Notes: generated by a model not told the origin, from the letters alone. Positions 2,421-43,792 are shown, counted from the first letter of the stretch. The stretch is DNA of 43,960 nucleotides from an uncultured Nitrososphaeraceae archaeon (GCA_963765895.1 CAVXZB010000068.1:1-43960), one strand, 5' to 3'. Translations and numbers: made by a program.

Positions 2421-2498
2421 GATATCATCTTAGTCAATTGTCTAATACAAAAGGATTATGTTGGGCTTTAAATCTATGTTGAAAGAGCATTATCAAAC

Positions 2499-5263: not shown

Positions 5264-5461
5264 CCCTTATCTCAAGTAATGCATTAATCTCCTCTTAAAG
5301 TTTAGCTCTATGCATTTTCAAATACTATACGTCAATCAACATTGATCGAATAGCTTGGAATAATGGTAATAGATTCAAAAACATGTAAGTTAAGTAGTAG
5401 TTGTAGTTGACAAATCTCTACTAAAAACAAACCTTTTGGTTAGATGATTCGCATTGCACAC

Positions 5462-5857: not shown

Positions 5858-6031
5858 GTCATATAATTGTAGTTATTCTAGTATCAATAATCTTATTAAT
5901 TAATTTTTTTACTTTGAGCTTATTAGAAAATCCTTGGGATAATAGGCAAGATAACCAGGGAATCCCTACTGATAATTTTGTTCTGTATTATTGTTAGAGA
6001 ATCCGGTTAATTTACTATATAGAGTTAGGGG

Positions 6032-16918: not shown

Positions 16919-17189
16919 AAGCCAAGTCATTCACCCTCTTGGCGCTATATATAGCTTAGTTGAAGGATATTATATTATAGTAACTTGCCAGTTATTGACT
17001 TATGGGAACGAACTGTGCATTGCCTTTTTTGCAATTCTATGGCTACGCTCAAGCCTACCAAGACGAGACGAATAATGCTGCGCTGCAACACATGTGAGCT
17101 CTGGTGTTTGCCAATGGAATATTGTCGCAATAGAGAATCAAGACTTTGAAAGACTACATATTTAGACCTCTACGTGGACTAGTGCTTTG
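16919..17189 (+). repeat. Dispersed repeat A, copy 1 (promoter + Zn-ribbon gene); copy 2 at ~24402-24672
   Basis: Shared AAGCCAAGTC...CTCTTGGCG.TATATATAGCTTAGTTG.AGGATATTATATTATAGTAACTTG.CAGTTATTGACTTATGGGAACGA. Confidence 0.9.
16985..17189 (+). pseudogene. Disrupted copy of the small Zn-ribbon gene at 24469-24672
   Basis: MPVIDLWERTVHCLFCNS..TLKPTKTRRIMLRCNTC, then a 1-nt deletion (~17095) and a CAG>TAG stop. Confidence 0.8.
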
Positions 17190-17472
17190 ACAGCTTGGAA
17201 CGCAGCCAAGTCTGGTGAGCATCATTGACATATGTTGAAAGTGTTCATATAGATGATTAATTGAAGGTCTTAAAGTTGGTTACAGTGCATGTCCTCATTT
17301 ATGATACCAACGCAGCCAGGAAAGAAACTGGCTATGTACTGATGTCCAGTATTTATCGTAATTGGTTTAGTTTCAGTAACACCGTATGGACTCTACGGAT
17401 AATTGAACTTCAGCTCCTGATTCATAGCCTGGAAAGTGGTCATCGTAATGATAACAATGCTAGGATTAGTAG

Positions 17473-17785
17473 TTCGCCGGCGACCAACGTCGACGCAAGA
17501 AAAGGACATGGTAGTTGTTTCCAGCAAGGAATAGCTGATGGTAAAGATCAACCATTCTATCGAAATACATTCAGTGCATGCGGTAGCGCGTACGGGATAG
17601 AAATTATGAAAGGATATCTATCTGTGGAGGGCAATACAACATATACATGTAATAATTCTGAAGACGCTGACGAGGTTATCTAACTGCTTTTTCTCTTTAT
17701 TATTCTAGTTTTTGCATTCACGCTTCAAGTTATTCGGAGGCGGCAACACATCTTCTATCCGGTTCGAATAAAGAAAATGGCCTGT
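17473..17785 (+). repeat. Dispersed repeat B, copy 1 (~310 bp; 3' fragment of a Cys-containing gene plus downstream DNA); copy 2 at ~31454-31759
   Basis: Both copies start at TTCGCCGGCGA, share ATGAAAGGATATCTATCTGTGGA.GGCAATACAACATATACATGTAATAAT and end in ATGGCCTGT. Confidence 0.9.
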
Positions 17786-17863
17786 TCAACTTATACAATA
17801 CAAAGTTGAGATAGAACGCAACGTTCAATAGATTGGAATCTGCCTCAGTATGTTAGCTTTAGA

Positions 17864-19210
17864 ATGGCTCTGACTGGCGATCCTGCCCGAAGGATGAAGC
17901 TTATGAAAATGATGTCCAACTATTGGACTGTTTTTGGAGTAGTATCGGTGCTAGTTATTTGCCTCGTTCTTGAAGTGTCTATTGTAAATGTGTCAGGATT
18001 TTCAAATCAATCCAGTTCTGCTACCGATATCCAGATATTTTCTGCATTAGGTGTATTAAGTATCATTTCACAGCTGATCATCTTGAACTTCATTCGCACA
18101 AGAAATCTTCCTTTTGAAAGGTCGATACTAAGGATCATGTATAAGGTAATGGTATTGACGCAACTGGCTATTATTGTTATTTTAGTGATAATTCTGATTG
18201 AAATAATCTTCACCGTTTCATATTATCTTATACATCTGGAATTGATATTCATGATTAGTTCCGTAACCGCAATAGCAGTTATGGGATTGTTGTCGTACAA
18301 GTTCGTTACATGGCTGAAATTGAACAAGAGTTGGACCACATTAGCGTATTTATGTGCTAGCCTAAGCCTATCGATTAATGCGATTATTGGGATAATATAT
18401 GTATCAGATCAGTTAAGTTACGTCTCTGATGTTATTCAGCCCAGTCCATATGGTGGATTTATGATGCACAGCCATACCTCTTCATTAGCTGTCTTGTACA
18501 CCATTTCCTCTGGCGTTACGTTCGTACTTTTTTGGTTAGGAACTGTCTTGTTATTACAAAGCTATCGTAAAAGGCTAGGAACGATAAAGTTTTGGATAAT
18601 CATGCTTGTTCCTCTACTCTACTTTCTAAGTCAATTCCAACCCCTGGTGACAGGTATTTTGTTTAATTATAGTTCTGGAAATCCAATGCTCTTCAGCATT
18701 GTTTATGTTTTGATGGTTGAAGTCAGCACACCTATAGGTGGAATTCTGTTTGGCCTAGCTTTTATGCTAGTAGCACGTAAGATCCAGAATGCAAAGGTAA
18801 AAGGCTACATAGTTATTTCTGGAATCGGTTTACTATTGCTATTAATTTCGTATCGGCCTCAAGAAATAATAACTGGCCCCTTTCCTCCATTTGGTCTACT
18901 TTCAGCTTCATTTATGGGATTGTCTTCATACTTGGTATTTTTCGGGATATATTCATCTGCTATATCCGTATCTCAGGATTCCAAACTTAGAGCATCTATC
19001 AGGAAATCAGTTGAAGCTGAAGTGAATTTCATCGTAAATATTGCTAGCGCAGAAATGACTCATACAGTAACTGAAAGGGTTCTAAGAAAAGTGAGGGCTG
19101 TTTCTGAGATGATCCCACGAGATACTGGTATCGCCACTTCTCTAACTGATATAGAAATCAAAGATTACGTTGCTGAAGTGATAAAAGAGACTAAGAACAG
19201 GAAACACTGA
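17864..19210 (+). CDS. Multi-pass (~10-11 TM) membrane protein with PPFG motif and cytoplasmic helical tail, copy 2
   Basis: 448-aa intact ORF with alternating hydrophobic segments; paralogue of 2499-3856. Confidence 0.9.
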   Translation: MALTGDPARRMKLMKMMSNYWTVFGVVSVLVICLVLEVSIVNVSGFSNQSSSATDIQIFSALGVLSIISQLIILNFIRTRNLPFERSILRIMYKVMVLTQLAIIVILVIILIEIIFTVSYYLIHLELIFMISSVTAIAVMGLLSYKFVTWLKLNKSWTTLAYLCASLSLSINAIIGIIYVSDQLSYVSDVIQPSPYGGFMMHSHTSSLAVLYTISSGVTFVLFWLGTVLLLQSYRKRLGTIKFWIIMLVPLLYFLSQFQPLVTGILFNYSSGNPMLFSIVYVLMVEVSTPIGGILFGLAFMLVARKIQNAKVKGYIVISGIGLLLLLISYRPQEIITGPFPPFGLLSASFMGLSSYLVFFGIYSSAISVSQDSKLRASIRKSVEAEVNFIVNIASAEMTHTVTERVLRKVRAVSEMIPRDTGIATSLTDIEIKDYVAEVIKETKNRKH

Positions 19211-19349
19211 GCCTCATGTCATTAGAGATGCCAAATGAACGGATAAATAGGCCACATAAATCACTAACCCATTGTTACTTAGTCGTTGTGATCTCACTAA
19301 TTTGTCTATGGTTCGTATAATAACTTCGAATTCAGGCAATCAGTTGTGG

Positions 19350-19372
19350 CTGTAGTGATTGCATCACTACAG
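19350..19372. terminator. Perfect 10-bp hairpin between convergent genes
   Basis: CTGTAGTGAT-TGC-ATCACTACAG, 2 nt past the stop of the minus-strand gene ending at 19375; terminator role inferred. Confidence 0.5.
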
Positions 19373-19374
19373 GT

Positions 19375-20051
19375 TTATGGAACCTTTAGATCAAATGATG
19401 TATCATAGTCGAAGTTAAAGGAGGGATCAGTAGGATTGACGACCCTTGCATTTACATGCAAGTTGTGTTCACCAGATGGAAGAGGTTTTAAAAAGATGAA
19501 ATAACCACCTGCGCCAGTCGGGTACGTGCCACCTTTAAGAAGTTCGAAATTATCATTAGGTACTATCATGTTAAAGATTTTGGTTATGGCATAGTTACTC
19601 TCCAGATTACTGAGCGGTACTCCATCCAGTGTTGCTTTGAATGTGAGATGCTGGTCCCCTATTGTAGCACAATTGATTAAGTCCGCTGGTTTCGTGGAGT
19701 GCGCTTCTATTGAAGTGCAAGATCCAGTCGATATTGGAAGCATAATAGCAGTCTTGGCAGGAATAGTACACGAGTAGTGTGAAGGGCCTTGTAAGTTTTG
19801 AACTAGAAAGGACACTTGCCCAGATACCTTCGTAGCACAGACTACTTTTGGATTAGTTTGTGGATGTTCAGCCTTGGGTACTGAGACATTCCATTGCCAC
19901 CACTTCTTTATCCAATCTGCGTAAGGTGTACCATAAGCTGAAGAGTCCTTGAGATAGAGTGCGGCGTGAAGGAAATGGCATAAGCAACCATTGATGGGCT
20001 AAGCAATATTATGAGAATCAGAGGAAATATTATCAAGTGTGATCTGTTCAT
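19375..20051 (-). CDS. Secreted uncharacterised protein (WW-motif family), copy 2; frameshift just after the signal peptide (~19975)
   Basis: MNRSHLIIFPLILIILLSPSMVAYA / ALYLKDSSAYGTPYADWIKKWWQWNVSVP...CATK..GQVSFL...CTIPA...GYFIFLKPLPSGEH; homologous to 1713-2420. Confidence 0.85.
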
Positions 20052-20092
20052 ATCTACTTTCATATTCCGCCATCAAATATATTTTTCGACAA

Positions 20093-20200
20093 CTAATTCA
20101 ATGCTACTCCTGCATGAGCTGCTTGTGTTCCTGTTATGACTGTTATTGCTAATCCGCCGGCAATGAGAACCCCGATCATGACGAGTAATTTCTTTTCCAT
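20093..20200 (-). CDS. 35-aa peptide precursor: signal peptide + C-terminal pentapeptide GVALN
   Basis: MEKKLLVMIGVLIAGGLAITVITGTQAAHA|GVALN*: basic n-region, hydrophobic h-region, AHA signal-peptidase site; 41 nt upstream of the secreted-protein gene on the same strand; TTTTACAA ~30 nt upstream. Confidence 0.75.
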   Translation of the reverse strand: MEKKLLVMIGVLIAGGLAITVITGTQAAHAGVALN

Positions 20201-20486
20201 CGTGTAACATCATATAGGATATGGTATCGGATTGTAAAAGGTCAACATGTCGCTCTCCAACGCTCCACTTACATCTGTCGTATTCATGTGATTCTACATC
20301 ATAAGCCGATTCGAATAATAATGGTCATGATAGGAACCCACGGTAGATTAATCGATGCATGTCAGAAAACTGGTCATGAGAGTAGTTGATGATTGTATCT
20401 ACATTCTATATATTATTACTTATGCTTTAGGAAAAAAAGTTTGGCACAAATGAAATATTGGTCTCTAGTGATAGTAATAATACTGC

Positions 20487-20639
20487 TTCAATAAGAAATT
20501 ACTGAATGCAATTTACAGACAAGTAATGCAGAAAACCTCTCATAGCGAGCACAAATATAATCTACAATTAGTAACTGGTAACTAACAACCGTAATGTACC
20601 GCACTGCCATACTGATATTTAGTGTTTGCCGGCAATGAC
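20487..20639 (+). repeat. Dispersed repeat C, copy 1 (~150 bp, apparently non-coding); copy 2 at ~28348-28511
   Basis: TTCAATAAGAAATTA..GAATGC.ATTTACAGAC...GAGCACAAATATAA...CTGGTAACTAACAACCGTA.TGTACCGCACT...GCCGGCAA; similarity ends at the palindrome. Confidence 0.88.
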
Positions 20640-20719
20640 TTGGTAATAATGACTGCTAGCCTCCACTTCTATCAATAACTAGAGTCAAAAAAAGTGCAGT
20701 TAATTCAATTAACAGTCAG

Positions 20720-20848
20720 TTAAGCGACAGATTCATTACTTGTATCCCTATCAGCAGCAGTATCTACTTCCTTTTCCCTTTCTACTTTCTTAATTGTCTC
20801 CTTGCGATATTCCCCAGTTGGTCCATCTACAGGTTCACCTTGAGACAT
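20720..20848 (-). CDS. Small hydrophilic hypothetical protein (42 aa)
   Basis: MSQGEPVDGPTGEYRKETIKKVEREKEVDTAADRDTSNESVA*; ATG start, AT-rich upstream. Confidence 0.5.
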   Translation of the reverse strand: MSQGEPVDGPTGEYRKETIKKVEREKEVDTAADRDTSNESVA

Positions 20849-21430
20849 TATTAGATAAGAATTGGACCAAATAAGATAAAAATGTAGTTACAATAGAATA
20901 CTATTCATAACAAATCGCGGGTATTTATTGTATCAGTATTTCTTGATTACTCGCCGGCAAAGACGACCTTGGGCCATATTCGATTTACAACCCGCAGGCT
21001 GCAGCATAAGGAATCTTGGCCAAAACCAGCGAGATCTCATCAGATTTTTAAAGCATCATTTGGGAGTGCCTTGGTATATGAATTCAACTTCAAAATTCAA
21101 TTCGAGATAAAATGAAACGATAACTATGGAAAGGTTGAAAATATGAGCTTGGAATAGGACTTGAGATAATAACATTATACAAAATTCACCTGTACCAGCT
21201 TGGCACAAGAATTCCGGTAACTTTAGCATTCCATTAGATAGACTAAAGGCACGCCCAAAGAAGTTAGAATTAATACATTTAATATATAATTGATGATATT
21301 ATTCAAATTAGTTTAAGACTTACAAAGGGTAAGAGATTTTTATAAAACAATAAAGATAATTTCTATAATTAAGTTTAATAGAAACGCTCACAAAAGCTAT
21401 TGATCGTGGGCTGGATTGTATATCATTATA

Positions 21431-21907
21431 ATGGTGGGTAAGATGGGAAGATCATACAGTGGTCCACAATGATAACTTTCTCATAGAAAGGATTAAGGAA
21501 AAAGACCCATTTCTAAAAAGGATTCTTGTTGTAGATGATGATCCAGACATCACATCACATTAACTTTCAAAGTGGCTTTAGAAGGTAATCATTATCATGA
21601 TAGCAGTTACAAAATGAGATTTGAAGTATATCCCTACAACGACCCTTTAGTAACATTATCACAATTCAAGCCAAATTTTTATGATTTACTTCTAACTGAT
21701 ATTTACATGCCACGCATGAATGGTTTTGAATTATGTCAAAAAATATTAGAGCTAGATTTAAACCTTAGAATATGTTTAATGTCTGCAGCAGAAATAAATA
21801 TTCAGGCCTTAAGAGAACTGTATCCAGCACTAAGCTTGGGATGTTTTATCAAAAAGCCAGTTGCAACAGAATATTTGATTAAAAGATTGTTGGCAGAGTT
21901 AGATTGA
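21431..21907 (+). pseudogene. Stand-alone receiver-domain gene broken by a 5-bp tandem duplication
   Basis: KRILVVDDDPDIT is out of frame with LTFKVALEG...LLLTDIYMPRMNG...FIKKP because of CATCA-CATCA at 21548-21557; start uncertain. Confidence 0.85.
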
Positions 21908-22327
21908 TTGTTATGGTAGAACATTCAGAAGACCACATGGTGTAATTAAAAAGATATTTGATGCCGATCGTCTTACACAGTTTTTCTCAGGATGGTCTGC
22001 TCAGGAAATATTACCAGAATAGGATAGAAATATCGAAAAATACTATTTTTAACACCACTATCTTCATAGTGATTTACTGATCTGATTCCTAGGAACAGAA
22101 CTTATTTTTTAGTATTCCAAGGAAAGACATTATTTGGCTGGCGGGCAGTAGATATAGTAGCAGTACGTAGAAAGATACTTTGTCGCCGGCATTACTTGTT
22201 ACATATATAGTTCGTGGGGAGTCGCCATAATAATGTGGCAAACATGTTTGTACCATATCTTTTGCGTGTCTCATGCGAGATTTATTTCTTATAACTGAAT
22301 GGAATCATGTTAACGGATGATTAATCG

Positions 22328-22510
22328 GCCGGCCAAAAGTGAGGTTTGGAATATGAATATAACTTTGAACATGATCCTGTTGACGCCGGCGATAACTTCA
22401 TGTCTCGTCTTACATTTAGTTTTTCTATCTTATACTGTTCGCCGGATTTTTTCCTCTTGTTCGTGTCTTTAGGCGAAAACCTACCTGTTCTGTCAATATA
22501 TTCACACATA
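22328..22510 (+). repeat. Diverged repeat D, copy 1; copy 2 at ~23153-23337
   Basis: Shared GAATAT.ACTTTGAA.ATG.TCCTGTTGACGCCGGCGAT.AC.TCAT...TCGCCGGATTTT...TTTAGG.GA...ATATATTC.CAC. Confidence 0.8.
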
Positions 22511-23152
22511 TTTTAGTAGAGGTATTTGTTCTTCAGCGGAGATACATGAAAACAACATAATAGAAATGACCACGAGGTTTGGGCACACCCTTATTGACTT
22601 CATAAGAATGATTAACACAGAATATCAATAGCAAGCATGCTGGGGTATATAAATATATGATAAACAGAATTATGTATATTTCAATATCAATACTGGTCTT
22701 AGTAGCGGATTCTTCTCTAGAAACGCCTATCTATGGTTAGATCTGTGAATAGTAACAGAAATACGCGCAGCTCATATATTGGTAACAAATACTCTCTTTC
22801 TTCATGAACACAAGATCTCGAAGTTTTTGAAGATGCATATTTCGTATTACTGGACAAGGCCAAAGGGAAACTAACTGAATTCAGGAAGAAGGGCCATAAT
22901 CCTAGATCTCATTGGGATATTCAGAAAAAATATCTGGCTAGTGAATATGAGTTGACAGAGTATTTAATCAAAATATCTAGATTGAGAATGCATTAAGCAT
23001 TTACAATACAACGAGTAGCGCGAGCTAAATTCAATCTATTAACCTGCTTTTCATGTTTCAAGAGGAATATGTGTCCCTCACCTCGATATTCAGCTGTGTA
23101 TCGTACAGTCTAAAGGCCGTGTCGCCTATGATAACACAATCAATGAATCAGC

Positions 23153-23337
23153 TGGCCAATCAAAACCAAGGTGCATAATGCCGAATATGACTTTGAATAT
23201 GCTCCTGTTGACGCCGGCGATCACCTCATATTTCTCTCATTACTTCTATTCTATTCCAGTGCTGCTGATCGCCGGATTTTATCTCTCCATGTCCTTGTTT
23301 AGGTGACAGAGTATCTACTCTATGATATATTCGCACT
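23153..23337 (+). repeat. Diverged repeat D, copy 2
   Basis: See 22328-22510. Confidence 0.8.
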
Positions 23338-23375
23338 TTTTTTCATGTCCATCTTGCCTAGTATATATTCCAGGC

Positions 23376-24323
23376 GGCTGTGTAGAAACCATCTCATACA
23401 GTCAAAGCTTTGTAAGAGTATAATACCAATAGTCTATTGAAAGAATCAATGTACGTCAGACTTGCAGGTACTATGTTCCGTGTTTTGAAGCATGCAAGGA
23501 TTCCTCTATTTTCTAACAGGAAAAGTAATCACATATTTACAATATGGCAGCACATAGTTCTAGTTGCTATACGACAGTATGAAGGTAAGAGTTATAGAAT
23601 GTTTGTCGAGTGGTTAATTGAAGCCTATTACCTAAGGTCATTTCTACGGTTGTCACGTATTCCTCATTTTACAACATTGCAAAAGTTTACAGATAGAATC
23701 AATAATTCATTGCTTGAAAAGATAATTTCGTCATTCATTGTAATTAGTGGTACCAAGCATATCTTTGCAGGAATAGATTCAACAGGATTTAAGATAACTC
23801 ATGCATCACAATATTATACTGATCGAACAGAATTGAGAAGAAAATATGCGAAATTATCTATTGGAGTAGATGTATTACAACAAATCATATGTACAATTAA
23901 GATAAGACGAGCTCCAACAAGGCATGATAATGTAGATTTCAGGCCAATTATAACAAGGACATCAAATATTCTTCCATTATCCGTAGTTACAGCTGATAAG
24001 GGTTACGATAGTGAAGATAATCACCTTCTCGTAAGAGAGGACTTACATGCATTCAGTATTATTCCTGCTCGATATGAACATGTACCGATGTGGAGAACAC
24101 ATGGTAAGTACAGAAAGCAGATGAAGCGTGGTTACTCCAAATTGCTGTACAATCAACGAAACAAAGATGAAACCATAATATCAGTCATAAAACGACTATT
24201 TGGAGAGAATCTTATGTCTAGATTGACTAGAATGCAGAACAGAGAGTTATCATTTAGATGTATCACCTACAATATGCATAGACTGACTAATCTTGTAATA
24301 TTGATGGTGTTTTCTACATAGCC
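23376..24323 (+). mobile_element. Complete insertion sequence, IS5 family (IS903-like), 948 bp
   Basis: TIRs GGCTGTGTAGAAA (23376-23388) and TTTCTACATAGCC (24311-24323); perfect 9-bp target duplication ATTCCAGGC at 23367-23375 and 24324-24332. Confidence 0.95.
23437..24321 (+). CDS. IS5-family DDE transposase
   Basis: IDSTG, ADKGYD, YNQRNKDET..S.IKR.FG; stop codon lies inside the right TIR. Confidence 0.95.
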   Translation: MKESMYVRLAGTMFRVLKHARIPLFSNRKSNHIFTIWQHIVLVAIRQYEGKSYRMFVEWLIEAYYLRSFLRLSRIPHFTTLQKFTDRINNSLLEKIISSFIVISGTKHIFAGIDSTGFKITHASQYYTDRTELRRKYAKLSIGVDVLQQIICTIKIRRAPTRHDNVDFRPIITRTSNILPLSVVTADKGYDSEDNHLLVREDLHAFSIIPARYEHVPMWRTHGKYRKQMKRGYSKLLYNQRNKDETIISVIKRLFGENLMSRLTRMQNRELSFRCITYNMHRLTNLVILMVFST

Positions 24324-24468
24324 ATTCCAGGCCATTTGTGCGATCTTGTCGTTGGCAGGTTTTGCCGGCAAAGATCTTCAAGTAGTTATGAGCTTGTGAA
24401 CAAGCCAAGTCGTTCGCTCCTCTTGGCGATATATATAGCTTAGTTGTAGGATATTATATTATAGTAAC

Positions 24469-24672
24469 TTGTCAGTTATTGACTTATGGGAACGATATGT
24501 ACATTGTCTTTTCTGTAACTCCAAGGTCACACTCAAGCCCACTAAGACCAAAAGAATAATGCTGCGATGTAACACATGCGGAGCTCTCGTATTCGCTAAT
24601 GGAATGTTATCGCAACAGAGAATTCAGACATTGCGGGATTTCAGATTTACATCCATGCGTGACCTAGTATAA
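24469..24672 (+). CDS. Small Zn-ribbon protein (CxxC-x17-CxxC)
   Basis: HCLFCNS...RCNTCGALVF; TATATATAG upstream; duplicated at 16985. Confidence 0.8.
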   Translation: MSVIDLWERYVHCLFCNSKVTLKPTKTKRIMLRCNTCGALVFANGMLSQQRIQTLRDFRFTSMRDLV

Positions 24673-25205
24673 AGCAGTGCTCATAGTATAGTCAATCTTC
24701 GCTCAAGTAACACTATATCGTAGTTCGCAAGCTTGGATTAGTATTTCTTGATCTGTTCGCCGGAATAGATGGGCTTCAGGCAGATTCCATACTCTAACGA
24801 TACTTTGGAGAGTGTAGTTCGCCGGCGAACTGCACTGGGAATCGCTATGCATAGATGAATTATCTTGAATCGCAGACAGCCAAGAATAGGTATACCATGC
24901 TCAAAGCTTTAAGTTTTTACTAAATTTGATTTCGAGGCAGACTGAGTGAGACATGTCAGTTATAATGTTTAGTTAAGTTGTGTCTTTACCTCGCCTCACG
25001 CCTTTTCTCCATATTAGTATTCAAATACCAGCGTTTCTTTATTGATGCATTCCGCCGTATTAGTCGATAATAGCGTGCTTGTCATTAATCGATCTTTGGG
25101 TAGACCTGCTGCAAATCGATATATCGCAGGCCAGGAGAGACTGTACGAATTGACAATTATCTTCATCCTGGTGTTCATTACCTCGCTAAATGTTTTAACC
25201 ATGGC

Positions 25206-25439
25206 CATTATTGGTATAATTATTTGTATTCTAAACAAGAATTGGAACCTTGGATTGAAAAAGTGAACCAAATAAAGGGTCAAACAAAAGTTCTTAGAGT
25301 GTATTTTAACAACCATTATGGTGATAAAGCTGTTGTTAATGCGCTACAATTTAAGGAAATGACTGGCACATCTTTAACTCAACTTGAAGGAAAAACGTTA
25401 GCACATGCAGAAAAGTATCTTGCCAAAGAAAGACTGTAG
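25206..25439 (+). pseudogene. C-terminal fragment of a DUF72-family protein
   Basis: HYWYNYLYSKQELEPW...VYFNNHYG.KAVVNAL is the DUF72 C-terminal motif; N-terminal portion absent. Confidence 0.8.
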
Positions 25440-25823
25440 CAATACCACAAGAACTTTCTTTTCTGACTTCCTCAATTCCATCAATGCATTGCTTATAACA
25501 ATATTCTAGATCAAGAGATGAGTACATAGTGGGTAGAAAGCTAGGTACGCGATGTCCAACATGGATTTGAATATATCTTGACTACGCCGGCGAACTCATC
25601 CATTGCATCCATTTATTCCATCATTTTTATCCCGACCATTAATAGTATCATCTCCATTTGTACCCAGTATGATCCAGCCGGTTCTGCTGTAACTAACACA
25701 TGAGCTGTCAGGTGGCAGAGTAGGGGCAGTAGTTATTCTACCATGTAAATGCAACGGAAGGTCCTTGAAGTTCTATGATAATATCGGCAGATTTACCTGC
25801 CAAGCGTGGTATAGATATATGTA

Positions 25824-27872
25824 CTATATTTTACCGTCTGACGGATAGCCAGTTAAGGCATTACCTTCTCTAGTTAACCAGTATGGAGTTTTGAGCGGCT
25901 CTTGGTTTTGACTTAGATATGTTAGGTGGGTACCCTCCACAGTACCACGTTCTCCTATCCACAAGACTTCCACGTTATTTGATTCTCTTGCTACAGCAGC
26001 AAGACCTCCACTAGTTGATGCAGTATAAGATTTAGCTAGGTTGTATGTAGGCTGCCAGTTACCGGAAATCCAAGTCTTGCCATTCACAGAACCATCTACT
26101 CCTATCCACCAAACATCCATGTTGTTTGAATCTCTTGCTACAGCAGCAAGACCACCCCTAATTGCGGCCTTTGACTGTGGTAATTGATATTTACCCCGCC
26201 ACGGCATATCATACCTATCAGAAGGATGGGTATCACCCCAATCCCATGAGTTCCAATAAACATATCCACTTTGTTCATGTGGTAATTTTTCACGTTCGGA
26301 TTGTCCCAGTGGTCCTATCCACCAAACATCCAATTTGTTTTGACCTCTCGACACAGCAGCGATACTACTGCCCCAAGCACTACCCGGTCCTGCTATATTG
26401 TATTGATCTACCATGCCTGCTAACGATTCACCATTCACAGAACCATCTCTTCCTATCCATATGACATCAATACTGCCGAGTCTCGACAGAGCAGCCATAC
26501 CACTACTGGTTGAGTGCCCCTTCGCGAACCTTGAAGGGAATTGGGCCCATGGGTTTCCGGGTGGCAAATCCTGTGAGGACCAGATACTACCATTCCAGGT
26601 ACTCATAACACGCGTTACCATCATACCCCATGTAAAACATGTATGGATTACCAGCGGAGTTTGTAGCACTCAGACCACAGCTAGTTGAGCAGTTACCGAC
26701 GGGAGTAGGTAAATTGGTCCAAGCCCATTGCCCATTAGACAATTCACCTTTCAAATGCATTAATGAACTATCTGGTTTTGTCCACCAGAGATGTACAGGT
26801 ACGATCTTGCGGAATATAATTTGAAGTGATACTACCGCTAGGTACAGATGCACTACCTAGTCCAGACATCGGCCATGGGCCCTCCCATTTTTGATTTGTA
26901 TACTTCATATTATGCACAGAACCATCGGGTCCTATCCAGAAGACTATTATGTTGCCTGAACCTGTCGCTACTGCAGTGATAGCATGATTGCCAGGGTCAT
27001 ATTCGACCCCCATTTCTAGACTAGGTAAAACACTGGACACATTATTCTGATTCCAAGGATAAATACTATCATTCCTATTGTGTCCCACAAGTCGCTGCCC
27101 ATCTTTAGTTGTTATCGCTCCATCGGCAGGATAATCAAAACCATGCGGTATTTGCCATCGGTCCCAGACACGATCAACGTAGCAGTGATGTAAGAAAAAT
27201 ATAGGATCGTTTGGAGACGTCATGGGGAACATGGATCCACCGACCCAGATATGGATATTGCCATGGAGTCCCTCAAATGTTTTCCTAAAGCTTGTATTAG
27301 AATTAGTAGCATCCGTACTATCCCAATTGGAACTGTCATAAGTAGGTACAGTTAATGCATTACGTACCTGAGCTGAAGTCGGTAATGGTACTCCAGAACC
27401 TTCTAAATCGCGTGTTAATAAACCAAGCGGACTACCATCTTTATCAACAATTGCCCATCTCTGAAAGGGGCCCGTATCTACGATGAAATTATTACTGATA
27501 TTTCCGTTGCCACCCATACAATCTACATTCCACACAGCCATATCCGACCATTTTTTGGAAGAATCCTCTGACCAATTCCAATAAGGCAATGTTATACCAG
27601 TGCCATCATTTACCTGCTGTAACTCCAATTCAAATCTTCGAATGAATTCACGATGCCACGGGAGGAACGCTGGTCCTGAATGTGCAACAGTTCGTTGATC
27701 TTGTCCTTCTGGAGTATCCTTATAGGCAGGCAGCATAATGCCAGAGGACAAATTCGTCATATTTATTGCCGGCTTGACCATTAGCTTGTTTATTTTTTAG
27801 TGCCTTTACTGCCGCAGTAAACTGTTGTTGCTCAATTTTACTTAACGATGCTACGTTTCTTCTCCAGTTCAT
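25824..27872 (-). pseudogene. Tyrosinase (type-3 copper) fused to Trp-rich beta-propeller (lectin-like) repeats; three frameshifts
   Basis: True start at 27872 MNWRRNVASLS..EQQQF..AVKALK...YDEFVLWH; AHSGPAFLPWH (CuA); LHGNIH..VGG.M....SPNDPIFFLHH (CuB); then repeats of [G]LAAVAR...DV[W]WIG.DGSV; frame changes near 27725, 26830 and 26600. Confidence 0.88.
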
Positions 27873-28347
27873 ATTTGTACACTAAGATTAACTAATGCGT
27901 AAGACAACTTCTATGTCCTTCTTGGCCAAGAAGGACAGAGCGGTAGAGTAGCATAATGCAGATGAACCGAATAATATCTATTACCCCTTTTAGCGACTTC
28001 AATAGATTTTTCTCCAATAGGTAATACAATCTTATTATCATCAAGTTTTCACTACTTTGTATATATTGTATCATATCTGTGAAAAACTACTATAATATTC
28101 CTATTAAATGGTACGATAGATTATTCTACCTGTAGTTTGTATCATTTGATCTGGTTTTACCTTTTTTCGCTGATATAGATTCCATTGATTCAAGTCAGGC
28201 AGAAAGACCGGTAGTCTAATCCTGTGCACGTTAGAAAAACGATCATGAAATTAATTGACGACTGTCTCTATATTCTATATGTTATTACGCATGCTGTGGA
28301 CAAGAAACATCGGTACAAAAAGATACCGGTCTTTACGACATTACGAG

Positions 28348-28511
28348 TTCAATAAGAAATTAATGAATGCGATTTACAGACGAGTTGCAGAAAACCTTCC
28401 ATAGTGAGCACAAATATAAGCTACCTTTAGTAACGAGGTTACTTGCTGGTAACTAACAACCGTACTGTACCGCACTACAATAAGTGATATAGAATGTTCG
28501 CCGGCAAAGAC
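28348..28511 (+). repeat. Dispersed repeat C, copy 2
   Basis: See 20487-20639. Confidence 0.88.
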
Positions 28512-28638
28512 CACATTAATGAATGATGGAGGCTAGTTTTACAAAATCAAGCAGACAAACATGAACACAATAAATCATAGTACATAAATTAGTATCAGCT
28601 TACCCAAGTCAGATATACTGATAATTCGGGCGAATATT

Positions 28639-29151
28639 ATGAATCGCTATAATTCGACATTTCTAGTAATAATTCTATTAACTACGGTATTAGTAACTGG
28701 ATTTACAGTAAATATACCAACAGCAGTATATGCCGATTCTAGGCTCCTAAAGCAAGATACCAATCAGAATGCAAGTTGTGATACAGTAGGTGCAGATAGT
28801 CCCGTATCAGATTCATGTAACCAGAATGCAGCAAATAATGTTAATAATGGTGTACCAAAAACTGCTGTAACGCCAGAAATAACAGGAACTCTATTGGTTA
28901 AATTTGTCTGTAACATTCCAGTATGTGCGACTGCTCCCCCATCTGTTATAATAATTGCTAGTGCTAACGCTCAGCGAGACATTCTTACATTTACGGTTTC
29001 GGGTAGCCAATTAGTCACATTAGATCCTGGTACTTTCCGTATACTTGTGCTTTCAGCAATTGGTAGCGACCTCTCAGGTGATTGCGATATAGGGAGTAAT
29101 ACGATTAAGGCAGGGCAACACCTAACTTGTACTATCTTAGCGGCACCCTAG
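28639..29151 (+). CDS. Secreted hypothetical protein (Gln/Asn-rich Cys-paired N-region + beta-rich C-domain)
   Basis: Signal peptide ending AVYA|; QDTNQNASC...SCNQ; C-terminal SGDC...IKAGQHLTCTI. Confidence 0.8.
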   Translation: MNRYNSTFLVIILLTTVLVTGFTVNIPTAVYADSRLLKQDTNQNASCDTVGADSPVSDSCNQNAANNVNNGVPKTAVTPEITGTLLVKFVCNIPVCATAPPSVIIIASANAQRDILTFTVSGSQLVTLDPGTFRILVLSAIGSDLSGDCDIGSNTIKAGQHLTCTILAAP

Positions 29152-29593
29152 TTTTCTTGTATTATTGTTCTATAACCAGTCTATTAATCGAATGATTAGC
29201 AAGAGTAGCAGCGGCAATTGAAAGCCGACTATCTACTCCAGCCTATCTAGTGAATTGATTCACCGATACTCGCTGGCAGAACGCCTATAGGCTGCTAACC
29301 TTTAACCCTATCCTAACTTCATCAATTGGTCTGTTTGTCTCTGATAAAATAGGATTCTCGCACTCTACATAATAATCTTGAGCTAAACAACAGGTATGAT
29401 TGATTAATGCAAATATTTTTCCTTGTATTGTGACCCTATTTTATTATAGATACTGACAGTTCTCAGTACCTTCTATAAGGTTGTATGGAAGAATATGAAA
29501 TATGATCCTATTTTCAAGTATTCTACTATTCCGAGACGCAATGGTCAATCTGCATATTCATCCACCCATCAACTTGAAGCAAAAGCATTGGTT

Positions 29594-30481
29594 TCATAGA
29601 CGTAGTATATCAAGGATAGCCCACTTTGTCTGAATAGCATTGACCGGATGATACGATACTAGCACTTTAGTGCCATTAATTACTTCCACGATGGAACCAA
29701 CCTTTCCAGCTATGGCGTTTTTAAAACTCTGAAGAATAGCAAAAGATTGATTTGAATTTAATGCTTGGTATTTATCTGAATCGGCTATCTTCTGACCATG
29801 GTGATCAACTAAAACAATATGTTCGTTATTGGCAAGTTTAAGTGATTGCAGCAATTTGTTAAAGACTGGTAAGTTTAAACCGCCAGCCCAGACGCCCAGA
29901 AGAGATGGTCTACTAGTATTTTCAGTAGAGTAGATCGGAACTCCAATATTGGTTTGTGGACGGTGTGAAGAAGCAGAAATAACAACGTTGCCAAGATTTG
30001 GCATATGTGTGCTAACAGCTCCTTTATAAAAGTCTCTAAAACCAAGATTGCTTGTGGTGAGGTTGTGCTGACGGGAATATGGTTCTTCCATATACACTAA
30101 ACCATTAGGCATAAGAAAAAAGATGACTCCGAAATCCTTGTCTGCTGACAGAATATCTCGTGCTACATTTCTTTTTTGAATATCCACATTTGCAGGTATT
30201 CCATGCAATGACTGATTAAGAAATGATGCATATGTATGATTTTTTACTTCCGGTAAGTTGCTTGTTATTTGTAATATTGCAGCTGATTTGTTGAGTCGGT
30301 TTGCTAGATTGTTAGCCAATAGTGATATGAGGGGAGTATTGTTATTGTTCGTAGTTTGATTATGAGTTTGATTTTGTCTACCTTGTGCAAATCCTAGCAT
30401 CATAGGATTCATTACAGTTGTTGTGGCAACGTTGACTAAACATAGCGCCACGACTATGTATATTGCTAATTTCATGTTCAT
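29594..30481 (-). CDS. Stand-alone extracellular Cache (dCache_1-like) domain protein
   Basis: N-terminal signal/TM (start 30481 or 30475); FFLMPNG.VY..EPY...NLGFRDFYKGA...VPIY...LVDHHGQ.IA...YHPV....WAI; no second TM or output domain. Confidence 0.85.
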   Translation of the reverse strand: MNMKLAIYIVVALCLVNVATTTVMNPMMLGFAQGRQNQTHNQTTNNNNTPLISLLANNLANRLNKSAAILQITSNLPEVKNHTYASFLNQSLHGIPANVDIQKRNVARDILSADKDFGVIFFLMPNGLVYMEEPYSRQHNLTTSNLGFRDFYKGAVSTHMPNLGNVVISASSHRPQTNIGVPIYSTENTSRPSLLGVWAGGLNLPVFNKLLQSLKLANNEHIVLVDHHGQKIADSDKYQALNSNQSFAILQSFKNAIAGKVGSIVEVINGTKVLVSYHPVNAIQTKWAILDILRL

Positions 30482-30692
30482 AAAATGAAGTATAGGAAAT
30501 TTTATCATATGGCGTATGCACCTATATTCAATATACTGTTTTCTTAATTTCATTAAGATAAATATAATATATGTGTTCTTGTTTATATAATTCCATAAGT
30601 GAAATTCAGAAACACAAATATTCAAAAAATCAAGAATGCAGACTAACAACTAGCTGATGGTAAATAGATAGGGCTTGAGGCTTGAGTATATT

Positions 30693-31265
30693 TCAGTTTC
30701 TCTTAGGCTCCAAGTGAAGCTCAACTATTCCAGAGTCAAATGGTGTAGATTTTATCATGATGAATTTTTGTACCTCTTTCAAATCTTTGAATATTGCCAT
30801 GCCACATCCAATAGCAACAGGATTTATGAACAAATGAAATTCGTCGATCAATCCTGCTTTAATCAAGGAAGAATCAAATGTGGCACCACCATACACGATG
30901 ATGTCCTTCCCACTTTCACTCTTAAGCTTCATGATTTCGTCCGTAAGGTCACCTGTGGCAAGAACTGTATTTGCCTACTTTGATATTTTTAGCGTTTTTG
31001 TAAAAACAACTTTTGGCGTTTCTATCATCGTTTTGGCAAAGGAATAGAAAGGATCGCTAGGTCCACTCATTATTTCTGATCAATACGAAACAAAGCCATC
31101 TGTCATTTTTCGTCCTAGAATAATAGTGTCGACAGAGCCAGTTAATTCAAACACATATTTTTTGAGTTCATCATCCCAGTTCCAAACCATCCAATCCATT
31201 TCGCCATTGGGTCCGGCAATGTAGCCATCTATGGACATTTGCACTTGCAGCTTTAACTTTCTCAA
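30693..31265 (-). pseudogene. Dihydrofolate reductase-like / RibD C-terminal domain protein with two in-frame nonsense codons
   Basis: MRKL..Q.Q.SIDGYIAGP...ILGRK...Y*...PKVVFTKTL..SK*ANT...GKDI.V.GG......LI.AGLIDE; single frame, TGA at 31080-31082 and TAG at 30975-30977. Confidence 0.9.
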
Positions 31266-31453
31266 AGATCCTCACACAGAGATCATAACGAATTTTATAA
31301 ACTTATAAGTATTTCTCGAGAACAAGTTTGGATTCAGCACAGTCCATAAGGAAGTATTAACTCATGTTTATTTGCAAACCACGACGGACAACTTCCAATA
31401 CGCTAACGCCTTTGGAAAGAAGGTAAAGAACTATTGTACATCTTTTGTGTCAT

Positions 31454-31759
31454 TTCGCCGGCGAACAACGTCAACGCAAGAAATGGACATGTAGTTATTT
31501 CAGGCAATGAATAGTTGATGGTAAAGAATACCATTCAGTACATGCAGAAGCGTGTATGAGATAGAAATAATGAAAGGATATCTATCTGTGGAAGGCAATA
31601 CAACATATACATGTAATAATGCTGAATACGCTGGCTAGGCGAGGTTAGCTATGCTTTTTCTCTTTCTCCATTATTATAGTTTTTGTGTTCACACTTCAAG
31701 TAATTCCGAGGCAGCAACACATCGTCTATCCAGTTCAAATAAAGAAGTTAATGGCCTGT
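31454..31759 (+). repeat. Dispersed repeat B, copy 2 (more decayed)
   Basis: See 17473-17785. Confidence 0.9.
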
Positions 31760-32298
31760 AAGCAGTATTTCTTAGTCTGTTCGCCGGCTAGTATGGTCTT
31801 GTTAGATGTGTTTTCAGCGAGCCAGCGCTCCCAAATCTATTCCTAGTCCGCCGGCATAAGAAAACCCGATCAAGTTGAGAATATTATTCGAGTGACTGCT
31901 GATTATAGAAGTGTCCCTAATGTCCCCGGCTAGTAGTCATTATCTATTCCTGAAATGACTAACTTACATTGTGTACTATGTAGATATAATAATAGAATAG
32001 TATAGGTGGTATAGAAAGTGGGATAGATAGTAGTGGCGAGGTAGGGACACTAGGGACAGAAAATGCTTTGATCGCAATGAATATACCTCCGTTTTTATCC
32101 GTTTGTAGATGAACTTTTTGATACCTGCTCGTAGGTACCATATTGTGAAACATTGTCCAACTATGTTCCACACCATAGTTACAGGGCCGGATAAATAAAT
32201 TGACATTTCGTTTCCAATCGACTGCAACTAGAGTCTTCTCCTAGAAAAATATAACTGAATGTTCAATAATATGAGTCTATAATAGATATAGTAACAAG

Positions 32299-34732: not shown

Positions 34733-35116
34733 CTTGGCAATAATAGCCCTCTATGTACCTTTTCATACTAGAAGATTAACTCTAAAACTTTTAAGTTTTT
34801 AATTTTGGTTTTGGAGATGATGTTCTTAATTATAAAAACTTTGGTAATATCTTGATTTGTTTATAATTTTTGTATGATAATAGTAGAACATTGGATAAGT
34901 TACATATATCAAGCCACATCTTGGCCTGGGAACATCCGTACCCAATAAAAAACCAGATTGGAAGGTATCTGGTAGAAGAAGGTGATGACCTTCATAGTAG
35001 TCTAACAGAAAACATTAGGGGTTTTTCATTATGTCCCTCATATTCCTTAAGGCAGCTCAGAGGGATACAGAGAAGAAAAAAGTTGCTATCTCATATTCGA
35101 ACAGGCTATAAGTGAA

Positions 35117-35871: not shown

Positions 35872-35962
35872 ATTGTTTCTAAAAAATCCTGTTATTGTAC
35901 GACTCGAAAAACCTTTCATCTGGAGAACATATATTCCTGAGTTTGGGACGCGCGAAGCTGTC

Positions 35963-36521: not shown

Positions 36522-36591
36522 TATACCATCTCAAATTTTATGTTCGAAAAAGTCGCTGTTAATGATCTGTATAACATAGAGGAATAAATCG

Positions 36592-36879
36592 TCTTAGCTG
36601 ATACAAATAAGCTTGAAAATTCTCTAGCCAGAGCAGGATTGAGATATTCATATTGAAAAGGTAATTGTAACATTTGAATTTGCGTCAGGTGATGATTATT
36701 GTCGTTACTGTCAAGCAGTTAGTGCATCTGCTCATATTGTGTTATCTAAAGAAACTGAAGATAGAAGAGAAGAGATCTGGAGAAAAGTGGCAGAAGAAGC
36801 AACGCGCAGTTACGGAACTGCTAACGGAGTTATAAAAATGGATAATGAATCAATATGTATTGTTGGAACACGACCATGA
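36592..36879 (+). pseudogene. C-terminal remnant of a class I SAM-dependent methyltransferase-like gene
   Basis: LAD.NKLENSLARAG / DIHIEKVIVTFEFASGDDY...EEIWRKVAE...G.IKMDNESICIVG resembles UbiE-like methyltransferase C-termini; 5' part missing. Confidence 0.6.
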
Positions 36880-36940
36880 TAGCAATCTAACTTGCACATT
36901 GATGGGTGGAGGAGTACTGTCATGGTTGTTATTTGGATTA

Positions 36941-37433
36941 CTAATTTCCTTCATATGCTTGCTTTAGAGTTTTTATGTCGAGCTTATGCATCTGAAGCAT
37001 TACCTTCATGACTCTCTCTGATTTCTCAGTGTCTTTGTCCTTTAGCATCTGGATCAAAGCTGTTGGAACAATTTGCCACGAGACTCCATATTTATCCTTG
37101 AGCCAACCACACTGCTGCGCTTTTTCATCGCCACCCTCAGAAAGTTTCTTCCAATAATAGTCCACTTCTCCTTGAGTCTCACAATGAATCTGAAATGAAA
37201 TGGCTTCGTTGAACTTAAATACTGGGCCACCATTGAGTGCTACAAACTTTTGTCCTTCAATTTCGAATTCCATAGTCAAAACTGAACCTTCTTTTCCTCC
37301 ATGAATCTTGTATCACTCTTTCCCATAGTGGGTAACGTCACCAATCTTTGAATTTTTGAAAATGGAGGCATAAAACTTTGCTCGCCTCCTCTGCTTTATA
37401 ATCGAACCACAAGCATGGAGTTATTTTCTGCAT
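36941..37433 (-). pseudogene. VOC/PhnB-like (3-dmu-9_3-mt family) protein, disrupted
   Basis: MQKITPCLWFD.KAEEA, then a frameshift (~37383) and an in-frame TGA (37313-37315); FVALNGGP.FKFNEAISF...CGWLKDKYGVSWQIVP. Confidence 0.9.
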
Positions 37434-37916
37434 ACTCGCAATAATATATAGAGTACAGTTTATAAATACACAAGGGATCAAAAGTATAGTGAATGTAGTT
37501 ATCGCTAACTCTCAGAATCTCTCTTTCATTTGATCAGAAAAGAATACGCTCGAATACGAATCGTCATATGAATTCAGATATTTTCATTAGTTCTCTTGCA
37601 TCGATATATTATATCAGATAGTCTTTCATTATGAATCTGGTTTCTGGTAATGAGTATGTAGTTCGCCGGCGAAATGCGCATAGATCGTCAGTAAGAATCT
37701 TAGAGTATACAGAATAGCCATAACGGATTATGGTCCCTTAACCATTTGTTCCCGGCGAACATGAATCCCCCCACCCTTCGTCATGATCATGATGAGCCGT
37801 CAAATTCTATTCGCCGGCGAAATACATTACCTATGAATATAACTACCGTAGTACTACAAATAAAGAATTGGTTATGTGCTGACGATTATCACATCAAGTT
37901 GAATCGTCCCTTAAAC

Positions 37917-42679: not shown

Positions 42680-43792
42680 CTAATTCTTTATGTACGGCTT
42701 TAGCTGTCCTGAATCGATTAAGGACTGTATCAATAATTCAAATTCTTCCTGCTTCCTTACCAATGTCTGAATCTGTTGATCCTTTTCTTGCAGCTGTGCC
42801 GAAATGTCGGCGCCCCGTCTTTCTAGCTGTTGATAATCAAGAAATGTCAGATACGGCTCAATTTTTCGAAATAAAGCAGCTTTTTCATCAACTGTACGTC
42901 GGTAGTAAGTATAAGAACTATGTCCAATCATAAACTCAGAAAAGTCGCCGTAGCCTAGATCCGAGATAGTAGATTTAACAAAACGCCTCATAGAATGTAA
43001 TGTAATACGCCGGCGTCTACCATGATCAACCTCTTCCCTGTCACCCATGCCCATTCTATCTAATGTTTTGCCAAAGTTGGCAGCAAACTGATTGTATAAT
43101 CCCTGAATATCTGGGTTGCTTCTATTCACCGAGAATAATAAATCATGATCATTCCTTTCTAGGGTTTTATATTCAATAAGAGTCTTACCACTTTTCTCAT
43201 CTTTGGAACATATCCTGCGAGTGCGATGCTTATATTCTAACCATAATGAAAGTTGATGTACTGATTCCTGAGTTAAGAAAACAAATCGAGAAACCTTTGT
43301 CTTTGTGTACTCACCTCGTATATGTAATCTTGGGGGGTTGGCGATCAGATCATAGTCAATTAATCTTGTACATAGTGCCTCAGATGCTCTCATTCCAGTA
43401 GATGCAAGTAACATAACATAAGTCTTTAGTCTGATGTCAGAACACGCATTTATTATATTTGTGATATCTTCCTTAGTTAAAGCTTGTATATCTTTACGAA
43501 CCACCCTTGGTAGTTTTACTTTGAGCTTATATTTCCGTGGGCTAATATCGACATCGAAATATTCAAGAAAGTTCTTTGCAGTCGTTATTCGTTGTTTTAG
43601 TGTTAATGTAGATATGGCGTTACTTGTTTGGAGATATGCAATATAATTACATAAAACCTCATAGGGATCATGCAAGCTTTCTTTAATCATCTTTATGAGT
43701 TCGTCTAAGGTCAGTTTATATTCCATCATAGTAAAAGTGGCAAAGTTATGTAGTCTAAAACGATACTCGCGGGCTGATGAAGCGCTCATCAT
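42680..43792 (-). CDS. Tyrosine recombinase/integrase
   Basis: Catalytic set TGMRASE (R), TKTK (K), LHSMRR (HxxR), IGH (H), YYR (Y); C-terminal coiled coil; frame open to ~43927, so the true start may be upstream. Confidence 0.95.
   Translation of the reverse strand: MMSASSAREYRFRLHNFATFTMMEYKLTLDELIKMIKESLHDPYEVLCNYIAYLQTSNAISTLTLKQRITTAKNFLEYFDVDISPRKYKLKVKLPRVVRKDIQALTKEDITNIINACSDIRLKTYVMLLASTGMRASEALCTRLIDYDLIANPPRLHIRGEYTKTKVSRFVFLTQESVHQLSLWLEYKHRTRRICSKDEKSGKTLIEYKTLERNDHDLLFSVNRSNPDIQGLYNQFAANFGKTLDRMGMGDREEVDHGRRRRITLHSMRRFVKSTISDLGYGDFSEFMIGHSSYTYYRRTVDEKAALFRKIEPYLTFLDYQQLERRGADISAQLQEKDQQIQTLVRKQEEFELLIQSLIDSGQLKPYIKN

Follow-up and report, generated by a model that had tools for sequence, protein, structure and literature searches.

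GCCGGC as a conserved word at homology borders in a fragment-rich contig of an uncultured Nitrososphaeraceae archaeon

In a contig of an uncultured Nitrososphaeraceae archaeon (GCA_963765895.1, CAVXZB010000068.1:1-43960), several repeated or truncated segments begin or end at the palindrome GCCGGC, which raises the question of whether this word is a point at which short DNA modules are cut and rejoined, as a sequence-only reading of the contig had proposed, or a conserved word at which the similarity of diverged copies stops. The window considered here is the entire contig C68 (43,960 nucleotides, 44 kb) of an assembly of 4.91 Mb in 88 contigs with 36.8% GC. The reading put first, tentatively and at somewhat less than even confidence, is that GCCGGC is a conserved block at the leader or control borders of fast-decaying multi-copy families, which occasionally provides short homology for ectopic exchange. 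Alignments of diverged copies were shown to stop preferentially at the block; GCCGGC was not shown to be a dedicated recombination site, and a dedicated enzyme is not needed by this reading and none was found.

The motif is a real, specific and genus-restricted feature. The window contains 25 copies of GCCGGC, whereas 100 shuffled sequences have 1.60 on average (maximum 5) and none of them reaches 25; the overlapping words CCGGCG/CGCCGG occur 34 times, and each of the 34 remaining classes of hexamers composed only of G and C occurs at most 5 times. Over the genome as a whole the word is not unusual (476 sites in 4.9 Mb, or about 1 per 10 kb; Markov observed/expected ratio 1.22), the enrichment being local to about 12 contigs or contig parts that carry paralogous fragments common to the window. 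These "islands" were defined by motif density, so that island-versus-rest ratios for the motif itself are circular. This genome has 10 copies of the exact 12-mer TTCGCCGGCGAA, 4 of them in the window; 6 other genomes of the genus have 1-3 copies each, and 24 genomes of other genera have none. Listings and abstract openings of the literature yielded no report of the motif in these archaea. The preference for one word, in several reading frames and outside genes, may reflect a function at the DNA level (protein binding, a dedicated recombinase or modification).

A stretch of contig C48 (1 to ~8.5 kb, about 36 of the 476 genome sites) was treated as foreign or chimeric and excluded from later counts, which left 436 sites with usable flanks. 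This stretch (C48:1-8500), which lies outside the window, carries a bacterial 16S rRNA gene (132-1651) followed by GC-rich frames with 36 GCCGGC sites, and the remainder of the contig carries insertion sequence (IS) copies of this archaeon; it is probably a chimeric join or a contamination in the metagenome-assembled genome (MAG).

Island sites are often extended to TTYGCCGGCRAA. Taking one site per similarity cluster, the 88 independent island clusters have a pyrimidine (Y) at -1 in 75%, T at -2 in 55% and T at -3 in 44% of cases, and the flank composition of the 230 clusters outside islands equals the background. The flanks are not complementary further than 3 bp on each side of the hexamer (mean arm complementarity over 7 nt of 1.85/7, controls 1.63-1.95; at least 5 in 12 of 436 sites). 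A comparison of YGCCGGCR with the reversed word in 31 genomes was rejected as a measure: the ratio was 3.6 in this genome and 1.7-2.8 in the genus, but reached 4.7 in other genera, and is therefore uninformative.

Conservation was measured on the high-scoring segment pairs (HSPs) that span a site. For the 25 window sites the motif is kept in 41 of 64 spanning HSPs, and 25 HSP ends lie within 12 bp of a site; in other family members, unlike in the sequence-only description, the homology runs through the motif. Across the islands, 53% of the spanning HSPs (196 of 370) keep it, whereas the figure for other all-G/C hexamers is 24%; it is the most conserved hexamer of this kind, which makes it a natural stopping place for local alignments. 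Only 20 of the 154 archaeal island sites fall in open reading frames (ORFs) of at least 120 aa (a count of 53 of 190 island sites in frames includes the 36 foreign C48 sites); outside islands, 153 of 286 sites lie within frames of at least 150 aa and mostly read Ala-Gly.

In repeat B, a family of small secreted proteins, the motif stands at the border between leader and mature part. The corresponding features of the window, with an additional copy of the 12-mer, are:

17448..17683, plus strand: repeat B copy 1, small secreted protein gene (translation; relatives P0002-P0005; DNA alignments)
17473..17484, no strand assigned: motif TTCGCCGGCGAC, Ser-Pro-Ala at the signal-peptide end in the B family (motif scan, translation)
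31454..31759, plus strand: repeat B copy 2, mature part only, starting at TTCGCCGGCGAA (alignment; 2 internal stops)
37810..37821, no strand assigned: exact TTCGCCGGCGAA (motif scan)

Both copies were said to start at the 12-mer (17473, 31454), and the match of 81% identity between 17473-17785 and 31454-31759 does begin exactly there; copy 2 is followed by the further site reported at 31783 and also by one at 31850. A database search with the 140-aa frame returned four relatives (P0002-P0005, 78-94 aa), all of which have a hydrophobic leader, then VVSSPAN, then a conserved mature part, and a leader running to SSPAN is likewise present in G003:C80. Here TCGCCGGCG supplies the Ser-Pro-Ala codons at the end of the predicted signal peptide; only for the repeat-B family was it shown that the motif codons of intact relatives come after a hydrophobic leader. 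In copy 1, 4 nt are missing directly before the motif, which puts the leader (MITMLGLVV) and the mature part in different frames; copy 2 is an orphan fragment, and 10 of the 13 B-family matches in this genome have internal stops. More distant B genes contain decayed or shifted versions of the motif, and those of two genomes of genus g2 use AT-rich codons and have no motif, so that it is a feature of a subfamily in this genus and not a requirement of the protein. When B relatives were searched in a one-genome-per-species collection, a single unrelated bacterial match was obtained.

The motif recurs in the control region and downstream of a multi-copy Zn-ribbon gene (family A), for which the window contains the following:

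16919..17183, plus strand: family A copy 1, decayed Zn-ribbon gene (aIF2-beta-like) with a TATA box (about 35 paralogous HSPs; alignment)
24469..24672, plus strand: family A copy 2, intact 67-aa Zn-ribbon ORF (weak eIF-5_eIF-2B and Zn-ribbon profile matches)
22315..22514, plus strand: fragment of the U region (repeat D copy 1), sites 22328 and 22385 (homology)
23099..23374, plus strand: distal U region of family A copy 2 (repeat D copy 2), site 23213 (homology)
23375..24323, plus strand: IS element of 949 bp with a DDE_Tnp_1 transposase, inserted into the U region of copy 2 (Pfam, copies)
24324..24468, plus strand: proximal U region with site 24364, which precedes the TATA box of family A copy 2 by about 55 bp (alignment)
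20935..20975, plus strand: element E (AGTATTTCTTGAT..TCGCCGGC), site 20953, where a 96.6% homology to contig C9 starts (homology)
24740..24829, plus strand: element E with a decayed core, GCCGGA at 24764 (motif scan)
31764..31855, plus strand: element E with site 31783, then site 31850 (motif scan, homology)

The family A segment (16919-17183 and 24402-24668) has 34 copies in the genome and its own TATA box, and its protein has a weak similarity to the C-terminal zinc ribbon of aIF2-beta. The U region, which is the 430 bp upstream of family A, is conserved among the paralogues and in other MAGs and species, and contains up to six GCCGGC-like sites, up to three of them within ~45 bp. A site lies 53-94 bp upstream of the reference point in 12 of the 34 copies, and 85-121 bp upstream of the ORF start in 8 of 13 Zn-ribbon loci of other MAGs (3 of 16 loci having been dropped as weak partial matches, two of those bacterial). 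The gene is multi-copy in other Nitrososphaeraceae MAGs as well (loci L015-L027). Repeat D (22355-22406 and 23183-23234) contains the motif, as had been noticed, in the form GACGCCGGCGAT in both copies, and corresponds to one of the U-region sites. The IS has 37 near-full-length genome copies of at least 97% identity, plus older ones of ~80%, and is flanked in the window by a 9-bp duplication, ATTCCAGGC (read by eye). Element E is a 25-bp block downstream of the Zn-ribbon gene, ending in TTCGCCGGC and present in about 17-18 copies; its decayed copy is followed by a perfect 14-bp palindrome, GTTCGCCGGCGAAC, at 24817-24830. Consensus folding of element E as RNA gave no structure on either strand (15 of 18 copies, 3 near-duplicates being dropped). 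Read as protein, the U region, element E and several flanks gave inconsistent frames, with insertions and deletions (indels) that are not in threes.

A third family, C, ends at the motif on one side:

20133..20639, plus strand: family C copy 1, left arm ending at site 20628-20633 (homology)
28209..28511, plus strand: family C copy 2, ending just past site 28500 (homology)

The match between 20341-20639 and 28209-28511 (74% identity) ends 6 bp past sites 20628 and 28500, in agreement with the sequence-only reading, and family members on C71, C77 and C85 continue through the site. Across the family, at least four classes of right arm succeed the left arm, which stops at the motif; two members have no motif. 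Repeats B, C and D, which had been taken for two-copy duplications, are instead diverged families of 5-34 copies, spread over many contigs (~12) and other genomes. Two further sites (20156 and 31850) encode Ala-Gly in hydrophobic leaders on the minus strand, the leader at 31850 being decayed.

Exact joins of unrelated sequences at the motif were then collected within and between genomes, and some seven cases were recognised (author's reading). The window features that they involve, or that had been proposed as borders, are:

30696..31271, minus strand: RibD_C pseudogene in two pieces, whose flank "Lw" abuts B copy 2 (profile match, alignment)
36595..37673, plus strand: 99.7%-identical copy of C73:38943-40015, ending in the middle of a 12-mer at 37662-37673 (homology)
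25586..25591, no strand assigned: site TACGCCGGCGAA, two HSPs starting at 25599, 8 bp past the site end
25104..25436, plus strand: DUF72 C-terminal fragment (homology spans 25205-25442)

The mature part of B has three left partners at the motif, namely its own leader (17476; C41), the RibD flank (31457), and a Zn-ribbon cassette with element E (G003:C204). Conversely, the B leader of G003:C80 runs to SSPAN and then into unrelated sequence, and in G004:C58 the RibD flank is followed by a decayed site, TCGCTGGCGA, and then by a further, different continuation. Element E has three left and five right contexts across seven loci. The copy at 36595-37667 (1073 bp, 99.7% identical to C73) stops in the middle of the 12-mer, and C73 continues as the window sequence found after site 24821; the left end of this copy (36595) has no motif. 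Immediately left of this copy, at 36099-36521, is a 140-aa ORF that weakly matches HNH endonucleases in PHROG. C84:531233 and C85:2327 have 581 bp in common at 91% identity, ending 1 bp after the motif. Contigs assembled from public runs, which may be the source sample, bridge the joins at 31454 (contig 31055-31611) and 37665; among these runs, whose short contigs are blind to rare variants and so say nothing about active recombination, one joint was seen, from 34084 to 37337 across 30 unrelated letters, and no joint fell at the motif. A search for empty sites over 852 site pairs genome-wide gave only trivial matches (paralogous sites, and a low-complexity gene on C19). Of the two other borders that had been proposed, the one near 25585 has the two HSP starts at 25599 beside it; the DUF72 fragment is not bounded by sites, since its homology stops 384 bp and 144 bp short of those that flank it.

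Homology endpoints were compared with a null obtained by local shifts. A cluster of endpoints lies within 5 bp of 50 of the 476 sites (33.5 +/- 5.1 expected, maximum 48 in 500 shuffles), and within 10 bp of 78 sites (57.7 +/- 6.2 expected). The excess is not particular to the motif: control hexamers show the same or a larger one (GCGCGC 67 of 271 sites, 44.8 expected; CCCGGG 23 of 143, 12.2 expected), and no excess exists outside islands (12 of 14,723 endpoints within 5 bp, 10.1 expected). Low-copy endpoint clusters within 5 bp of a site were distributed by HSP identity as follows:

Islands, HSP identity of at least 90%: 4 of 180 observed, 0.9 expected
Islands, HSP identity of 80-90%: 7 of 751 observed, 3.7 expected
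Islands, HSP identity of 65-80%: 30 of 1515 observed, 7.5 expected

In total 41 of the 2446 island endpoints (1.7%) are this close to a site, where 12.1 would be expected. As so few are at sites, the motif did not build the mosaic. The proposal that it is a recombination or cleavage point is supported in part, by the several exact joins and by this excess inside islands; but the joins are a small share of the breakpoints and do not stand out statistically from those at other conserved GC-rich words, and no catalyst is linked to them.

In repeat families, short conserved blocks are also marked by GCGCGC (about 253-271 genome sites, often as GGCGCGCC in repeated 26-mers), at which homology endpoints gather no less strongly than at GCCGGC.

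In the preferred reading, GCCGGC (often as TTYGCCGGCRAA) is inherited as a short conserved block within several families: it encodes Ser-Pro-Ala in B and Ala-Gly in the leaders at 20156 and 31850, several copies are located in the U region, and one is located in the 25-bp block downstream of the Zn-ribbon gene. Because one side of the block is conserved (leader or control region) and the other side changes fast or is replaceable, diverged copies tend to align only as far as the block. The seven or so exact joins would be the product of occasional ectopic exchange, for which 9-25 bp of shared GC-rich sequence may have provided short homology, and the bulk of the mosaic would result from ordinary duplication, IS insertion, deletion and decay. 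Several points weigh against this reading. The specificity of the word (25 sites, at most 5 for comparable hexamers) and its presence in varied frames and in apparently non-coding DNA go beyond what descent alone would give, which hints at a constraint on the DNA itself; the junctions are exact within ~3 bp, as a sequence-specific enzyme would also make them; and the three codons used for Ser-Pro-Ala are expected to be rare at 37% GC. In addition, the control hexamers are not neutral, since they may sit in similar blocks, and the counts refer to HSPs and endpoints rather than to independent events.

An unlikely alternative is that no exchange takes place at the motif, which would merely be the best-conserved word beside fast-evolving or truncated sequence, so that alignments of copies at 65-80% identity end there. 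HSPs of 65-80% identity, the most diverged class, do have the greatest excess of endpoints (30 observed, 7.5 expected; at 90% and above, 4 observed and 0.9 expected), and the motif is the most conserved all-G/C hexamer. Pairs similar on one side only number 126 at the motif against ~75 at 90-120 bp on either side, and this profile has the same shape for GCGCGC (178 against ~58) and for the other palindromes pooled; CCCGGG and other GC-rich words share the endpoint excess and the one-sided profile. This explanation does not account for the 1073-bp copy that ends in the 12-mer or the 581-bp copy that ends 1 bp after the motif, as at identities of 99.7% and 91% the anchoring of alignments is no issue, nor for the junction of the B mature part with the RibD flank and with the Zn-ribbon cassette, two partners that are not diverged leaders.

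Dedicated site-specific recombination, in which a recombinase would swap or capture modules at a core site TTYGCCGGCRAA with its crossover in GCCGGC (as in an integron, a shufflon or a re-used attachment (att) site) and the islands would be arrays of modules, is judged distinctly unlikely. A shade less likely again is the fuller proposition that the genus has a site-specific module-shuffling system, with a palindromic site of ~12-20 bp that has a GCCGGC crossover core and is located at the borders between leader and mature part and at those of control regions; an as yet unrecognised enzyme would then swap secreted-protein domains and small-gene cassettes, leaving arrays of orphan fragments, as an archaeal counterpart of integron, shufflon and orphan-module systems. 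Exact junctions with differing left and right partners within and between genomes would be expected from such recombination, as would the decayed site of G004:C58, located where the window has B on the same left flank; the palindromic extension in independent clusters and the 12-mer in 6 of 6 other genomes of the genus, but 0 of 24 from other genera, also fit. Against it, beside the share of only 1.7% of island endpoints at sites and the similar control hexamers, only 6 of 2388 unique endpoints of HSPs with at least 90% identity lie within 10 bp of a site, arm symmetry past 3 bp is at background, and many sites are internal to conserved units such as the U region.

The enzyme proposed as catalyst was the tyrosine recombinase of the window:

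42680..43792, minus strand: tyrosine recombinase (integrase) at the contig end (profile matches)

No link between this enzyme and the motif was found in the genome. A site lies within 300 bp of 2 of the 25 integrase-like loci, where 1.3 would be expected; 4 of the 25 loci are in islands, and the 40.9-kb contig with the closest paralogue of the integrase (92%) contains no site. Site 43009, inside the integrase gene, is kept in 0 of 4 paralogous HSPs that span it, and site 42479 lies 204 bp outside; the contig ends 168 bp past the integrase, so the far side is outside it. The single serine recombinase of the genome lies outside islands, and no Y1 transposase (PF01797) was matched in the genome by a search that was positive in 6 of 14 genomes.

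Known systems resemble these islands in part. Integrons share short varied modules, a recurring site and, on this contig, a tyrosine recombinase; however, the latter reaches 23.6 bits with the NCBIfam integron-integrase model, whose cut-off is 265 (its best match being archaeal XerA-like, 63.6 against 220), the sites lack the long imperfect hairpin of tens of bases of attC, the Zn-ribbon module has its own TATA box, and the integrase paralogues are not near sites. In polymorphic toxin loci (CdiA, Rhs), a conserved N-terminal part is followed, at a short motif, by alternative C-terminal parts, and orphan fragments start at that motif. B copy 2 likewise begins at the motif, but the join here is at the signal-peptide end of small secreted proteins, and non-coding blocks contain the word too; among the profile matches of the window genes there was no recognisable toxin or immunity gene. 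Repetitive extragenic palindromic sequences and bacterial interspersed mosaic elements (REP/BIME), with their REP-associated tyrosine transposases (RAYT), are comparable as dispersed short palindromes and possible rearrangement points, and differ by the absence here of complementarity past 3 bp on each side, the lack of a Y1 transposase match, and the many copies inside ORFs. The integrated elements of thaumarchaea come from the same archaeal group and, in PMC6563490, combine an integrase with PrimPol as the window does; their att sites are described there as short (8-26 bp), tandem re-use of a site giving arrays, which is in favour of recombination. None of the att sequences in four supplementary files of that paper contains GCCGGC, direct repeats flanking an integrase-bearing unit were not found here, and 23 of the 25 integrase loci have no site within 300 bp.

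It is improbable that the palindrome is primarily a protein-binding site (operator of a dimeric regulator, or target of another island DNA-binding protein) beside which breakpoints are incidental. The position upstream of the Zn-ribbon TATA box, fixed across paralogues and species, would suit an operator, as would the palindromic form, the grouping of up to three GCCGGC-like sites in ~45 bp, and the occurrence in different frames and outside ORFs (20 of 154 island sites in ORFs). No regulator was identified, however, the entire U region is conserved and not the sites alone, many sites are inside coding sequence, and a search for TATA-like words at a preferred distance from the motif gave a single peak, due to family A.

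The palindromes of HIP1 type (highly iterated palindrome) in cyanobacteria are short and GC-rich, occur far above expectation in coding (several frames) and non-coding DNA, and are more conserved than their neighbours. These features are also seen here, but confined to the ~12 island contigs, with a genome-wide ratio of 1.22 and no matching C5 methyltransferase found. That the word is a target of restriction-modification or repair, maintained by methylation in a HIP-like manner or regenerated by cutting and rejoining, is highly improbable: junctions that regenerate the full site, decay products that are transitions (GCCAGC, GCTGGC, GTCGGC) and eight N6_N4 methyltransferase (PF01555) matches in the genome are in its favour, but none of these eight is in the window, no C5 methyltransferase (PF00145) was matched in a genome that is 88% complete, the enrichment is confined to islands, and a search for an NgoMIV-type enzyme gave no match here or in any control genome and so says little.

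From its gene content, the window looks like a decayed mobile-element or hypervariable island, similar to the cryptic integrated elements described in PMC6563490. A PrimPol gene stands towards one end and the integrase at the other, and between them are a transposase, the split RibD_C, the DUF72 tail, a truncated response regulator, and the tyrosinase and lectin-like ORF:

6032..8782, minus strand: PrimPol-type replication protein of a mobile element, 916 aa (Pfam Prim-Pol; PHROG helicase)
25824..27781, minus strand: tyrosinase ORF and beta-propeller lectin-like ORF with 147-nt tandem repeats (profile matches)

The PrimPol gene contains two GCCGGC sites (7670, 7899) and has no paralogues; site 27768 is at codon 7 of the tyrosinase frame, and the tyrosinase/lectin region has a 72% identical paralogue on C20. 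HTH proteins are encoded at 4841-5263 and 33899-34732. Rfam and tRNA scans of the window gave no matches. Positions 1-7621 are 99.4% identical to C67:14373-6750, and as the match stops at an IS copy in C67, this left part of the contig is either duplicated or an alternative of the assembly. The segment 12367-15569 has a higher GC content (44-47%) and encodes a cyclic-nucleotide-monophosphate (cNMP)-binding pyridine-nucleotide oxidoreductase and a short-chain dehydrogenase, each with 5-8 paralogues at 76-98% identity on other contigs; the dehydrogenase paralogues are among the intact genes with GCCGGC, in the window at 15323.

At the scale of the genome, stop-to-stop frames of at least 150 aa cover only 49% of the sequence. 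With this low cover and the internal stops in many family members, the B family among them, the genome looks unusually rich in pseudogenes and fragments and gene-poor. Two other causes of the low cover were rejected, namely reassignment of a stop codon (no single stop explains it, cover rising from 0.49 to 0.55-0.61) and indel errors of long reads (the 37 IS copies have 141 mismatches against 24 gap positions, without homopolymer bias). An archaeal rRNA operon is present on C84 of the same assembly, no mcrA was found in a search of the genome, and the window sequence occurs in 4 soil metagenome runs of one study, possibly the source sample.

If the exchange is real and frequent, soil archaea of the ammonia-oxidiser type would recombine leaders, secreted domains and small regulatory genes in this way, and the motif would be a sequence tag for module borders in MAGs. 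Should it prove to be no more than a word conserved at the borders of families, the case is a caution that GC-rich words in AT-rich, paralogue-rich genomes attract alignment ends and mimic recombination sites. Either way, what is documented for this genus is a genome unusually poor in genes and rich in fragments, a Zn-ribbon family of 34 copies, and a family of secreted proteins with a palindromic leader end.

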